This document shows positions 8,781-63,705 of a stretch of 64,000 nt of DNA, one piece after another. Position 1 is the first letter of the stretch, and each line of letters starts with the position of its first letter. The position numbers and the translations under genes were made by a program. Origin of the DNA: a bacterium (lineage in GTDB: Bacteria > SAR324 > NAC60-12); the NCBI GenBank assembly GCA_965205865.1, contig CBDBHR010000030.1:736001-800000 (forward strand). The letters are read 5' to 3'. Below the pieces are notes generated by a model that saw only the letters and a list, made by a program, of their open reading frames with translations, did no database searches and had not been told where the DNA came from.

Positions 8781-8960
8781 AGTCCCGGAGGGACGAAAGG
8801 AAATAGCCCAGCCATTTATGACTGGGGATAGATTTTGATGGTGGATCCAGTCCTGGAGGGACGACACTGAAAGCGCACTGAAGAAAAAGTGTCGTCCCTC
8901 TGGGACTAAAAAGGTTTTGTGGCATGACCCAGCCATAAATGGCTGGGCTATGCTCTGTCA
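8781..8960. repeat. IS200/IS605-associated-type palindromic element
   Basis: agtcccggagggacga / tcgtccctctgggact and tagcccagccatttatg / cataaatggctgggcta inverted units. Confidence 0.65.
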
Positions 8961-9112
8961 CCCTTCCAGGGTTTTCTCACCTTCACCTGTGTGAGATCGA
9001 GTTGATCAAATTGCACTTTTTCCTTTGATGAAAATGATGTCTGGTCTTATTACTCAGAAACGACGGGTAGCGTCATATTTTGTTGGTATTCCTGAAAAAC
9101 GTTGTCCCTGTG

Positions 9113-9928
9113 ATAGGAGTCAGGAAGGCATTAGCCTCCCTGCCCTCCGAACCGTGCGTGCGGTTCTCCCGCACACGGCTCTCCAGTCGTTGGTTTCCTC
9201 ATCGGGATTGGCTCGCTACCCATCGGGCTTCTTTCATGGTGAAAAGTCCGAGTTGCGCAAAGAAGAGATCTCCTTTGACTCCGTTACCCAGAGCCGCCAA
9301 CATACGTTCGATCCATATCGTTGTTTCCACCCAACTCCAATGAGGAGAGGCTTCTGTTTCCAGGTTAGTCATCTCCGACACTTTGGAAACTCCTTTCTCT
9401 TGAGGATCAACTTGATGAACTTCTCGTATCCAACTTCCTACCCCGCTTCCCTCTTCGGGATTTTGCTTCTCCCGCCTTTCATGAAGCCTGCCTGTCAATT
9501 CAGGTTCGTGTTTGTTTTCCCTGTTAGCCATCTGCTTTCCCGATGGTGTCACAATATCCTCACCTTGTTGAAAGACACAACTCCATTACGGTACTATCAG
9601 GGTTCTGACTCCTCTACCTCTCACCAAAGGCAGAGGTCTCCCTGCTTCTCTCGCTTAACCTTCCTGATGTTCCGTCCCCAACCACGTTATGCGCCTGACC
9701 CTCGTTTTATCCACCACCGCAACGGGATCAGTGAGTTTCAGACTTCGCCACGAATGAGCAAGCTCGTCGCTAACATGCCGCCGAATCGGGTTCGTTCTCC
9801 TACGGACCACCATTTCGCCTCCGGTTGCTCCCCACCCCGCCTCATGGCGACGCAGTTACCTTCGGCTACAGCTGGTTTACCATGGCACGGACTTCCACCG
9901 CGCTGATTAAGCGCCTTCCCAGGCGCAC
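9113..9928 (-). mobile_element. Group II intron, 816 nt, RT ORF internally deleted
   Basis: 5' GTGCGCCTGGGAAGGCGC; DV GAGCCGTGTGCGGGAGAACCGCACGCACGGTTC; 3' CCTAT; fused RT N- and C-terminal scraps. Confidence 0.92.
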
Positions 9929-51644: not shown

Positions 51645-52425
51645 ATGAAAATGAAAAATACGAATCGAGTCTTGAAAATCATAGCCTTTTTGCTCTCCTT
51701 CGGGCTCATTGCCTGTACAATCTCCATCAAACTACTGCCACCGGATGAAGTCAACCAGATGGGAGCCCAAACATTCAGTGAGATAAAACGGGAGGCTCAC
51801 CGGGAAACAGACACCCGCGAAAACGCCTATGTCCAGTGTGTCGCGAAACGGATTCTAAAGCATTCCGGGGAAAATTCCGCAATCGATCAATGGGAAGTCG
51901 TCCTGTTCCGGGACCCGGCTGTTAACGCCTTTGCGCTCCCGGGAGGAAAAATCGGCATCTACACCGGACTACTGAATATGGTCGCAAATCAGCACCAGTT
52001 GGCGGCGGTGCTCGGGCATGAGGTCGGACACGTCATCCTGGAACACGGTAATTAAAAAATCTCTCAGGACCTCCTGGTTAAAGGAGGGTTGGCGGCTATT
52101 GAGCGCCTTATCAAAGACAAGGACCCGCAGGAAAAAAAGAGATCCTGGCTGGTTTGGGGCTTGGCGCGCAGATCGGTCTCGCGCTTCTTTACAGTCGCCA
52201 TCATGGATTCGAAGCAGACCAGGTTGGACTTGACCTGATGGCAAAAGCAGGATTTGATCCCCGGGAAAACCTTACGTTTTGGGAAAATATGAATCAGAGT
52301 GGCGGTCAGCCACCTGAATTCCTCTCCACTCATCCTTCCGATGAAAATCGAATCAAGGATCTGAAATCGAGAATGACGGACGCCTTGAAGCTTTACGAGC
52401 AAGCGGAAAAAGCGGATTGTGGCAA
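51645..52425 (+). pseudogene. M48 family metallopeptidase (broken near 52053)
   Basis: NAFALPGG, HEVGH, EADQVG, FLSTHP. Confidence 0.88.
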
Positions 52426-52429
52426 CGTT

Positions 52430-53835
52430 CGACTAACACTCGGAGAATGGAGTTTTTGGACCTATGAAGACGGCAGTCGTTACAAAGACCCGGTGCATGT
52501 GTGGAAGTTTCTTGATCGGAACCTGGGAGATCCTGAAGACGACTGTCAACATTCTATTGGTAGTCGGATCGGGAAAATTAATAAATAACCCCGATATCTA
52601 CGTCTTCAGGAAGTCGGACAAGTTCGTAGTAGCGTGAGCAGCCGACAAGGCTGTGGATTTTGGAGAGTGAAAGTCTCTCTGTCGTCAGTTTCCCATTCGG
52701 GCGACTAGCATATCCGGTGCGCTTAGCAGGTAACTGCTTTGCGTTCTGCCCGGAAGTAAAAGTCACCGTCTGCTTTGGACGAGAGTCCATAGTGGGAGCC
52801 AACAGGGTGGCGAGCAAACCTGGAGGCCTGAACATTAGTGAATGATTGCAGCTCCGAAAGAGACTTCCGTCGTGAATTGGCTTGACGGTGTGTTGCCCAA
52901 CCGCCGACCCGCTCGCTACTCGGGGAAGGCCGAAGTTCCAAGGGAAGTAATGGGAACAGGCACCTTGGAGGGAGCCGGAGTATGGATCCAAGCATCCAGG
53001 GAAAGATCCACAGAGATAACGTCGGGAAGGGCCAACTTCCAGCAGGGACTCGCAATAACCTGCAAGGACCTACCGTATAGGGTAACACCGAAATCGGCAG
53101 GAGGATTTTGGTCTGGCGCATGAGTCCGTATGAGCGATGAAGACCGGGTAACGCTGGTCGAGGGGATGCTTGGACATCTCCCTTTTGGAGGTAACACCTC
53201 TAAAAGGCAAAGGGGCTCTCGGTAAATGGCGGGCATTTCATGAACCACTGCCGAACTTGTGTCGGTCAAGAGTGTCACCACAAAGAATGTCGAGCTGGAG
53301 ATCAAATCACTCACTCCAGGGGTGAATGCAGGCGAGTGCTTAAGCTTCGGATTGGGTGGGAAGGGTTTCTGGGGAAACGCTGTTGCTGCCAACCGGACTC
53401 GGGAAATCCGACCGTCCGGGATGAGAGGGGGGGCTTGCGGAAACGTGATGCAGGGTCTGACGCCCTTTTGCCACGAAACCGGAAACGGGGGATACATTGG
53501 AAGTCGTTGACCTAAACATGCGCGCGCCGTATTTCTACCCGGCATGAAGCGGCGAACAATGAGATCATTTGTAGAGAGTAATAATGCAAAGGAAATCAAC
53601 GGAGCCTGTGGAGCAAAGGGACTTGGCTGAGAGGAATTCTGCTTGCCCTCCTGTGTTCGGAACTCAGAGGCCGGTAAAATCAGAGAGCGGTTTAAGCAGG
53701 GTGCGCCAAACGGCAACGTTTGAGCGTCTGACTCGAAGCAGGAGCCGGATGCGTTAGCAGCGCACGTCCGGATCTGTACCGGAGGAATGACGAAAGGTGG
53801 CTGGAAACCACTATAAGTCAGTTCTTTACGGTGAC
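52430..53835 (+). mobile_element. Outer ORF-less group II intron (5' end uncertain), interrupted by an inner intron
   Basis: GGAACCTGGGAGATCC, GTAGTAGCG|ATGAAG, DV GAGCCGGATGCGTTAGCAGCGCACGTCCGGATC, 3' TTTACGGTGAC. Confidence 0.88.
52635..53543 (+). mobile_element. Inner ORF-less group II intron, 909 nt
   Basis: Absent from the allele at 63285-63705. Variant DV AACCGGACTCGGGAAATCCGACCGTCCGGGAT, long DVI, end TTTCTACCCGGC. Confidence 0.85.
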
Positions 53836-54159
53836 TTTGATTATTTGATTAGGAACGAGTCCAGTTTTTTTGCCCCCTTTTCATTTAATCAAAGGCCTGA
53901 CCCCTTTTTGACCCCCTTTTCAGACCCTTTTTCTGATAGGAGTTTGGCGGTTTTGAAAATATTCTTTCACAGAGAGAACTGACTCTTCAACCTTTTTAAA
54001 GAGTTTAAGAATTTCTGCTTGTTTTTCTTTTTCTTTTTTGATAGTTCTCAACGAAATCGCCTTTGGCTTAAGGTTTTATTTCACCTGGCATACGGCGATA
54101 ATATCGAGAAATTAAGAAAAATGACACTTAAATTTCGCTAATATTTTAGCCGAAAGTCA

Positions 54160-62926: not shown

Positions 62927-63284
62927 GGGGTAAGGCTTGCAAGTTTGCAAATTTAAGAAAACGTTTTTAGGTTGAGTTCTTTTAACCGCTCTTGGAGATT
63001 TGTGGATTCCTTCAATCTTTCTCTCAACTTATGCGCTCCACGACTGATAGTAGAATCATCTCGCTTGAGAGCATTTGCCACTTCCCGGATTGTTGCAGAT
63101 TTCCAATCGAAGACTGATAAAAGCGACGAGAGTCGCTGTCATCGAAAAAGTATGTTGCCCCCCATTGCCTCGAAGTATCACATGATAAAGCGCACCAGGG
63201 TAGTACAAACGCGGTTTCTGAAACAATTTGGCAAATTGAAAAAGGTTAAAATAAAAAAAAATACCTTATTTTTGCAAACTTGCA
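62927..63284 (-). mobile_element. Second copy of the RAYT-derived MITE; right IR cut by a group II intron
   Basis: Near-identical to 58464-58821. Confidence 0.88.
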
Positions 63285-63705
63285 GTCACCGTAAAGAACT
63301 GACTTATAGTGGTTTCCAGCCACCTTTCGTCATTCCTCCGGTACAGATCCGGACGTGCGCTGCTAATGCATCCGGCTCCTGCTTCGAGTCAGACGCTCAA
63401 ACGTTGCCGTTTGGCGCACCCTGCTTAAACCGCTCTCTGATTTTACCGGCCTCTGAGTTCCGAACACAGGAGGGCAAGCAGAATTCCTCTCAGCCAAGTC
63501 CCTTTGCTCCACAGGCTCCGTTGATTTCCTTTGCATTATTACTCTCTACAAATGATCTCATTGTTCGCCGCTTCATCGCTACTACGAACTTGTCCGACTT
63601 CCTGAAGACGTAGATATCGGGGTTATTTATTAATTTTCCCGATCCGACTACCAATAGAATGTTGACAGTCGTCTTCAGGATCTCCCAGGTTCCGATCAAG
63701 AAACT
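63285..63705 (-). mobile_element. 5'-truncated ORF-less group II intron (empty allele of the outer twintron)
   Basis: Reverse complement matches 52506-52634 joined to 53544-53835. Confidence 0.9.

Follow-up and report, generated by a model that had tools for sequence, protein, structure and literature searches.

A 909-nt segment without a gene of its own interrupts, at one exact position, a copy of a group II intron in the DNA analysed here (contig CBDBHR010000030.1, positions 736,001-800,000 of the forward strand; 64,000 nt, hereafter the window), raising the question of what this segment is and how it came to lie inside another intron. The segment, called i909, occupies 52635-53543 and splits the sequence GTAGTAGCG|ATGAAGCGG. 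We consider it probable that i909 is a non-autonomous, ribozyme-only group II intron that reached this place by reverse splicing, guided by its exon-binding site 1 (EBS1), into a motif of the outer intron resembling domain III (DIII; domains I-VI are abbreviated DI-DVI), with a reverse transcriptase (RT) supplied in trans. The boundaries are fixed by an uninterrupted form of the same sequence at 63284-63705 on the minus strand: in blastn comparisons, 52506-52634 is 100% complementary to 63577-63705, and 53544-53836 is 100% complementary to 63284-63576. Both the length of the insert and the lack of a target duplication, as given in the original prediction, are exact against this continuous sequence. 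Neither neighbouring base allows the boundaries to slide, and a shift that would create a GUGAGC start is impossible without altering the sequence of the empty site. The termini are therefore TGAGC..CCCGGC (UGAGC...CCCGGC in the RNA), the non-canonical ends that had been predicted. The parts of the two intron copies in the window are as follows, with "unit" denoting positions in the repeat unit of the outer intron described below.

52483-52634, plus strand: 5' piece of the truncated outer intron (unit 259-410: end of DI, DII hairpin and start of the DIII-like motif), ending in ..AGUAGCG, the 5' exon of i909; placed by blastn to C28:322271-322973
52635-53543, plus strand: i909, the inner group II intron without an open reading frame (ORF); present in four copies with at most one difference, with an Rfam D1D4-4 match and a covariation-backed fold
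53544-53836, plus strand: remaining 3' part of the outer intron (unit 411-703), with the second portion of the DIII-like region, DIV, and DV-DVI at 53740-53835; 53836 is the first base of the 3' exon
63284-63705, minus strand: second 5'-truncated outer copy (unit 282-703), in inverted orientation, with the target site unoccupied at 63576/63577

The outer intron belongs to a repeat family that we delineated by searching the window's own genome (30 contigs) in blastn with the 422-nt uninterrupted form and chaining the matches. It comprises 41 loci, 16 of which are uninterrupted and full length. The repeat unit of 703 nt consists of a 10-nt 5' exon (GGGTCAGGCY), an intron of about 692 nt (GTGCG...GGTGAC), and a T. 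A full copy scores 164 bits against the Rfam model group-II-D1D4-6, whose gathering score is 49, and RF00029 recognizes the DV-DVI of the copy with 30-31 bits; judged by its sequence, the outer element is a bona fide group II intron. The 3' piece in the window (53544-53836) also matches the Rfam Intron_gpII model, with 31 bits and an E-value of 9.5e-4, below the gathering score. Five outer copies hold an additional insert of 1264 nt (1346 nt in one of them) at unit 581 that encodes an RT (RVT_1, about 128 bits). The position of this insert, exactly at unit 581 in all five siblings, indicates that the 692-nt form is an ORF-deleted derivative of an RT-bearing intron of about 1.96 kb from the same genome, and the deletion joint in DIV corresponds to 53714/53715 in the window. 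That neither element in the window encodes an RT, as had been claimed, was confirmed, with the addition that five full-length siblings of the outer intron do carry one. A tandem pair of outer introns occurs at C26:238999-240180, with no base between the end of one and the start of the other.

Both outer copies in the window are truncated at their 5' ends, the first starting at unit 259 (window position 52483, not 52430 as originally proposed) and the second at unit 282. Thus, the window lacks nearly all of the outer DI together with the 5' splice site, and without unit 1-258 the locus cannot splice as a twintron. The description of the locus as a twintron holds insofar as the inner intron is nested in another group II intron, but fails for the window's outer copy, from which 248 nt at the 5' end, the 5' splice site among them, are missing. 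Similarly, the "empty allele" at 63284-63705 does provide the uninterrupted sequence, but it is just another truncated copy of the 41-locus family. Intact nested copies of the outer intron with i909 are found elsewhere in the genome (C30:1205892-1207501 and C29:627015-628625). The window locus itself is a nested copy in a dead, 5'-truncated host, that is, ordinary debris.

The insertion site had been assigned to DI of the outer intron. The D1D4-6 match, however, spans unit 45-267, and the i909 site at unit 410/411 lies 143 nt beyond it. A long hairpin (unit 308-386) precedes the site, and the position in DIV where the ORF is inserted follows 170 nt later. The split motif, CGUAGUAGCG|AUGAAG, recurs inside i909 and in relatives of i909, where it forms the 5' strand of the DIII helix set (i909 positions 488-584) in the lineage fold model presented below.

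53127-53142, plus strand: the DIII 5'-strand motif of i909 itself, CGUAUGAGCGAUGAAG, homologous to the outer target and differing from it at two positions of the 7-nt stretch that pairs with EBS1

This homology and the position of the site together place the target in a DIII-like motif of the outer intron rather than in DI, an assignment that is made by motif comparison and location, not from a solved outer fold, and that we regard as likely in this sense. The same motif is also the target of a second ORF-less intron, innerB (903 nt), whose insertion point in three other outer copies (C28:326614-327516, C30:654282-655114, and C29 near 729061) is unit 406/407, 4 nt upstream of that of i909. InnerB thus resembles i909 in lacking an ORF and in using the same motif of the same outer family. 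It differs in having no sequence similarity to i909, a canonical DV (RF00029, 44 bits), and the end ..GAC; its first bases are GCGCAC, and the last GU of the exon completes GUGCG.

Four full copies of i909 are present in the genome, each of them (4/4) inserted in an outer copy at unit 410/411 and oriented like its host; another 32 target sites are empty. Three copies are identical over 908 nt, and the window copy differs by one additional G (seven at 53427-53433 vs. six). Their three full-length hosts, by comparison, differ from each other at 8-14 of 586 positions (1.4%-2.4%), carry different informative single-nucleotide polymorphisms (SNPs), and are not each other's nearest relatives. Mohr et al. 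2010 (PMC2882425) interpreted identity among inner copies whose hosts had diverged as a sign of recent independent insertions of the intron TeI3 into TeI4, and by analogy the near-identical i909 copies show a pattern that would be expected of recent independent insertion. Beyond the full copies, the genome contains a 45-nt scrap of i909 and a 196-nt fragment resembling its 5' part with 96% identity (C29:45405-45599), which lies inside a transposase-like ORF (..KKVKGFHPLH) and is followed by unrelated sequence. A DNA search of 44 genomes of the same family yielded no match (0/44).

More distant relatives are widespread. A blastn search against plasmids identified such relatives in Niallia, Mycobacterium, Bacillus, and Cupriavidus, which share with i909 a nearly invariant hairpin (GAACCGGACUSGGGAAAUCCSACCGUCCGGGAUC). 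A degenerate pattern of this hairpin occurs at no fewer than 112 (>=112) genome loci, and the lineage counts at least 119 metagenome loci; the genome matches listed include Bacillota, Actinomycetota, Acidobacteriota, Planctomycetota, Desulfobacterota-type bacteria, Gammaproteobacteria, Chlamydiae, Omnitrophota, and two archaeal metagenome-assembled genomes. Because members were chosen by this DV pattern, conservation of DV within the lineage is by construction. A compensatory DV change is seen in one relative (L010). From the genome matches we retrieved 80 loci representing 76 distinct pattern matches, and 49 of these 76 (plus three found later) have a GAGCAGCC-type 5' motif 690-890 nt upstream of DV, the remainder being affected by contig ends, truncations, or other insertions. 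This distance is too short to accommodate an RT gene. Members are 805-966 nt long, start with GGAGC, GUAGC, or GGGAC instead of GUGYG, and have the 3' end ..GAC. When the loci of 20 relatives were scanned with Rfam models, D1D4-4 matched in 10, three of them above the gathering score; RF00029 matched none of the pattern-matched DVs at these 20 loci, and its single match was the DV of a host intron. A literature search retrieved no description of an ORF-less lineage with such a DV and 5' end, the key subscription papers and supplements lying outside that search.

At least 24 of the 40 relatives that could be trimmed to their ends are situated in or against another group II intron, with host calls at shared sites resting on scans of representative loci. 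Nine of the 40 split the arms of a DV-like hairpin of the host (e.g. ..GAGCCGUGUGCGGGAG | AACCGCAUGCACGG..), all nine in host orientation. Eight Bacillaceae copies share one common site, and the flanks of one of them (L014) match D1D4-6; five Solirubrobacteraceae copies share a site that abuts a D1D4-6 match (161 bits in L033 and L037), and two further members (L011 and L058) adjoin D1D4-6 and/or RF00029 matches of a host. Copies of the lineage itself are arranged head to tail at L067 and L084. More generally, members at L067, L084, and L020 lie head to tail or nested in one another, with the 3' exon of one being the 5' end of the next. From these flanking sequences, the lineage appears to live mostly inside other group II introns.

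The fold of i909 was modeled with MAFFT and RNAalifold from 41 sequences (i909 and the 40 relatives), so that structure and covariation counts derive from the same alignment. Nine of 50 rows had been dropped for a wrongly picked 5' motif or a 3' end off the locus (L008, L016, L045, L057, L060, L062, L072, L075, and L082), and the 3' end of L007 is trimmed 4 nt too long in this set. The model yields six domains with 29 helices, all of them 85%-100% canonical, and 26 of the 29 show at least one compensatory double change.

52642-53025 (i909 8-391), plus strand: DI, from the lineage fold
53026-53117 (i909 392-483), plus strand: DII, from the lineage fold
53122-53218 (i909 488-584), plus strand: DIII, from the lineage fold
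about 53219-53389, plus strand: DIV, variable, from the lineage fold
53390-53423 (i909 756-789), plus strand: variant DV, CAACCGGACUCGGGAAAUCCGACCGUCCGGGAUG, in which the triad, AGC or CGC in canonical introns, is AAC with its middle A opposite an asymmetric G-A loop, and the usual 2-nt bulge persists as CC
53431-53536 (i909 797-902; region to 53543), plus strand: long DVI, followed by the bulged A at 53537 (i909 903) and the 3' end ..CUACCCGGC

The bulged A, placed where a branch adenosine would be expected, lies unpaired between two helices at a distance of 6 nt from the 3' terminus of i909. In DI, Rfam group-II-D1D4-4 matches 52661-52837 with 33.2 bits (E-value 3e-5, gathering score 49). 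The variant DV and the long DVI of the original prediction were both recovered, the former with its AAC triad and without any Rfam match at E-values up to 10, the latter with a length of about 106 nt in the lineage fold. The canonical GUGYG and AY termini are missing from i909, which has UGAGC ... GC instead. On this model, we conclude with fairly high confidence that i909 is a ribozyme-only group II intron, with ribozyme activity being presumed.

The loop assigned to target recognition is the following.

52914-52920, plus strand: EBS1 loop CGCUACU, carried by the conserved hairpin CCGACC..U[7 nt]CGGGG (52904-52925)

This loop forms seven of seven Watson-Crick pairs with the last 7 nt of the 5' exon, AGUAGCG (52628-52634), a pairing that sets the 5' junction at the same point as the empty site does. 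It replaces the exon-binding candidate of the original prediction, the loop CGCAAT at 53051-53056 (hairpin 53042-53063), which is located in DII and pairs at only five of six positions. Throughout the lineage, the corresponding hairpin (CCGACC..U[7 nt]nGGGG) exposes a 7-nt loop complementary to the end of each member's own 5' exon: the mean contiguous pairing between loop and exon is 5.88 bp over 41 rows, compared to 3.79 bp (maximum 4.24) in 200 exon shuffles. About 11 low-scoring rows in this count were mis-anchored by the script, and eight Bacillaceae rows were scored on another 7-bp match, their conserved loop by eye also pairing 7/7 with one G-U. A delta-delta' pair between the U preceding EBS1 and the A at exon position +1 was considered and rejected, as this U is kept in most relatives whatever the +1 base.

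The termini of i909 depart even from those of its relatives. Position 1 is a U, where all 40 genome relatives and all 37 metagenome relatives with a 5' end have a G, and the penultimate base is a G, where all 80 metagenome matches have an A (the search pattern left this base free). The trimmed genome relatives mostly end in ..GAC, ..AAC, or ..GAU. The 96%-identical fragment at C29:45405 shares the U at position 1, so the U1 form has reached at least two different sites. An explanation by loss of nucleotides at the 5' junction through microhomology (the exon ends in G) was dropped, since the lineage also has 5 nt before the AGCC stem and the C29:45405 fragment has the same U. The first and penultimate nucleotides of group II introns interact during the second splicing step according to the accessible text of PMC3669008 and PMC4238363, and it is attractive to read U1 and the penultimate G as a compensatory swap; this would fit the sequence, as would two disabling mutations. 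The accessible text of PMC3669008 further describes the triad G as invariant and reports a G-to-A change at this position as a means of inactivating the Oceanobacillus iheyensis (O. iheyensis) intron.

If i909 is mobile, it would depend on a foreign enzyme, and we found no similarity to RT in any of its frames; blastx of i909 and innerB against the four RT proteins of the genome gave nothing below an E-value of 0.2. The genome contains 11 RVT_1 matches from three RT-bearing intron families: six of the outer type (five lying in copies flanked by intron sequence on either side), a second type with three, and intron X (C30:877953-880079, L243), in which a 463-aa open frame spans the RT. The DV of intron X likewise has an AAC triad in the place of AGC but is still matched by RF00029 with 41 bits. 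Intron X was considered as the closest RT-bearing relative of i909 because of the shared AAC triad and the ..CUACCCGGAC end, but its DI is of the D1D4-6 type (105.8 bits), not D1D4-4, which makes for a weak link. Nor does i909 qualify as an ORF-deletion derivative of a resident RT-bearing intron, as no RT-bearing sibling identical to it on the two flanks of a deletion joint was found.

At the RNA level, 18 sequencing runs contain at least half of the sampled words of the stretch. Contigs from four metatranscriptomic libraries (two studies) cover i909, and one of them crosses its 5' junction, although such contigs cannot show ends or strand. A skip of the 909 nt is seen in all four libraries, but this is uninformative on splicing given the 32 empty DNA copies, and DNA carry-over is possible. 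In the sponge libraries (X15-X18), contig depth peaks over DV (53369-53432) and loose ends lead from there into other sequences, indicating that these libraries also contain further members of the lineage.

In the mechanism that we favor, the 7-nt EBS1 loop, of the CGUACU type and here CGCUACU, would recognize AGUAGCG in the conserved DIII-like motif by base pairing, i909 would insert there by reverse splicing, exactly and without a duplication, and the inserted copy would be fixed as DNA by an RT acting in trans, most plausibly that of an RT-bearing group II intron of the same genome. The exact boundaries, the identical site in 4/4 copies, the EBS1 match, the lineage fold with its exon covariation, and the near-identical copies in diverged hosts are the observations on which this reading is built, and from them we infer ribozyme activity, reverse splicing as the route, and the source of the RT. 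The earlier idea of a non-autonomous intron parasitising a conserved motif of other introns is borne out by the common site of the four copies, the 7/7 EBS1 pairing, and the location of at least 24 of 40 relatives in or against group II introns. Several points weigh against this reading, however. The DV of i909 has an A at the position of the invariant triad G, and U1 and the penultimate G could be inactivating changes, while the first nucleotide of the relatives was deduced from the 5' motif and the EBS1 register and not from empty sites. The DI match is below its gathering score, and the 3' 190 nt (53370-53560) have no Rfam match, including to RF00029, even at E-values up to 10. Furthermore, i909 contains no ORF remnants, in local alignment its DIV matches those of the outer intron and intron X no better than shuffled sequences do, and gene conversion among the 41 outer copies could mimic identical inner copies in diverged hosts. 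A related alternative, that i909 is a dead passenger which inserted once by reverse splicing, lost its activity (U1, penultimate G), and was spread by gene conversion or recombination, or together with the outer intron as a composite mobilized by the outer RT, is on balance quite unlikely. It would account for the fact that i909 alone departs from G1 and the penultimate A (40/40 genome relatives have G1 and 80/80 metagenome relatives the A), 410 and 292 nt of repeat homology flank i909, the SNP patterns among the outer copies look mosaic, and composite mobility is named as a possible route in the accessible text of PMC2882425. Yet with 8-14 differences per 586 nt in the hosts, composite mobility would lead one to expect about 12-22 between inner copies, and three copies have none; the hosts of i909 form no clade; and the U1 form is found at two or more sites, counting the C29:45405 fragment.

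Alternatively, i909 may travel at the RNA level, by reverse splicing into the RNA of a host intron and being copied into DNA when the host retrohomes with its own RT, a route that would explain why the lineage is ORF-less everywhere and located mostly inside other introns. We regard this as unlikely. It is consistent with the 24 or more of 40 relatives in or against a group II intron, the host orientation of all nine insertions in DV loops and of all four i909 copies, one nested copy in a 5'-truncated host, as expected of an incomplete composite cDNA, and a DIV in i909 that is unlike that of the outer intron or intron X. The present data fit DNA-level homing equally well, though, and of the hosts only C30:1205892 has a near-identical empty sibling (one difference in 700), the others being 6 and 11 differences away from the nearest full-length copy. 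Moreover, retrohoming needs the host ribozyme, whose function should suffer when DIII or DV, both catalytic domains, is interrupted. Finally, an entirely different element, such as a non-autonomous relative of the IS200/IS605-like or IS110-like insertion sequences, would also lack an ORF, leave no target duplication, and use one specific site, but we disfavor this possibility as highly improbable in view of the covariation-backed six-domain fold, the Rfam match to a group II DI, the DV-like hairpin that has a 2-nt bulge and precedes a DVI bearing a bulged A, and the exon-complementary loop that covaries across the lineage.

The surroundings of i909 in the window hold further repeats and gene fragments.

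53837-53905, plus strand: dispersed repeat of about 70 nt, often found 3' of the outer intron and at many genome loci, whose last bases are the conserved 5' exon of the outer intron in reverse complement, GGGTCAGGCC

This repeat may offer the outer intron a homing site on the other strand. Upstream, a Peptidase_M48 gene is split into two ORFs (51645-52588; profile positions 2-80 and 127-185), the second of which runs about 35 codons into the truncated intron fragment before reaching a stop. The two truncated outer copies form perfect inverted repeats (293 nt plus 129 nt) that flank a 9.4-kb segment with peptide ABC transporter genes (SBP_bac_5 and two permeases) as well as a Type ISP-like methylase/restriction gene, and they could permit inversion of this segment. 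At a distance from this region, two matches to the Acido-Lenti-1 RNA (8781-8826, minus strand; 8928-8973, plus strand) adjoin a canonical group II DV (9113-9183, minus strand; 50.9 bits) that belongs to a multi-copy family without an RVT_1 match at any of its loci.

Nested group II introns in bacteria and archaea, as well as trans-mobilised ORF-less introns, are established (PMC2882425, PMC4424553, in the portions available). The closest parallel is found in the twintrons of Thermosynechococcus elongatus, in which the ORF-less TeI3 (F3) homes to one conserved site of another mobile intron, TeI4 (F1). As with i909, inner copies are identical and outer copies diverged, the outer family has RT-bearing and ORF-deleted members, and the RT acts in trans, which for i909 is our inference. 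According to the available part of PMC2882425, TeI3 and TeI4 are close relatives that stem from one ancestor, and TeI3 retains ORF remnants and inserts in DIV between two start codons; i909, on the other hand, is unrelated to its outer intron (no blastn match beyond 16 nt), has no ORF remnant, targets a DIII-like motif, and has non-canonical ends and a non-canonical DV. Repeated site-specific homing into group II introns, including by ORF-less introns and without a host gene, is also described for Methanosarcina acetivorans in the accessible text of PMC4424553 and PMC2882425; compared by description only, those introns home into the ORFs of related introns and i909 into a ribozyme domain. The Trichodesmium twintron with ORF-less mini-introns (PMC4649490, as far as its text was available) has a housekeeping-gene context and its sequential splicing has been demonstrated, whereas the window's host copy of i909 is truncated. 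Likewise, HYER ribozymes are ORF-less, of group II type, were found by comparative genomics, and recognize their target with a short guide-like loop (accessible parts of PMC12990946 and bioRxiv 10.1101/2024.08.31.610620). Again compared by description only, they are reported to belong to class IIC, with HYER1 being 637 nt long and having a 6-nt recognition site (PMC12990946, in part), in contrast to the 805-966 nt, the D1D4-4-type DI, and the 7-nt EBS1 of the i909 lineage.

The interest of these observations lies in the lineage and in the paired terminal changes of i909, not in the window locus. A bolder interpretation, put forward tentatively and consider possible rather than likely, is that i909 represents an unrecognised and very widespread class of ribozyme-only introns with an altered active-site hairpin (A for the triad G, and a purine moved to the opposite strand) and a GGAGC start, hyperparasites that exploit the RT and perhaps the RNA of other group II introns, in which the changes of G1 to U and of the penultimate A to G would be a compensatory swap in a still-mobile element. 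Genome surveys rely on Rfam RF00029 to find DV (Miura et al. 2022, PMC8919778, in its accessible part), and the lineage, abundant across bacterial phyla and present in some archaea, is invisible to this model and ORF-less throughout. If its RNAs are active, the "invariant" triad G would not be invariant, and i909 would allow the contact of nucleotide 1 with the penultimate nucleotide to be tested in a natural element. Active RNAs would also mean that a whole layer of introns parasitises other introns, and genome counts of group II introns would change.

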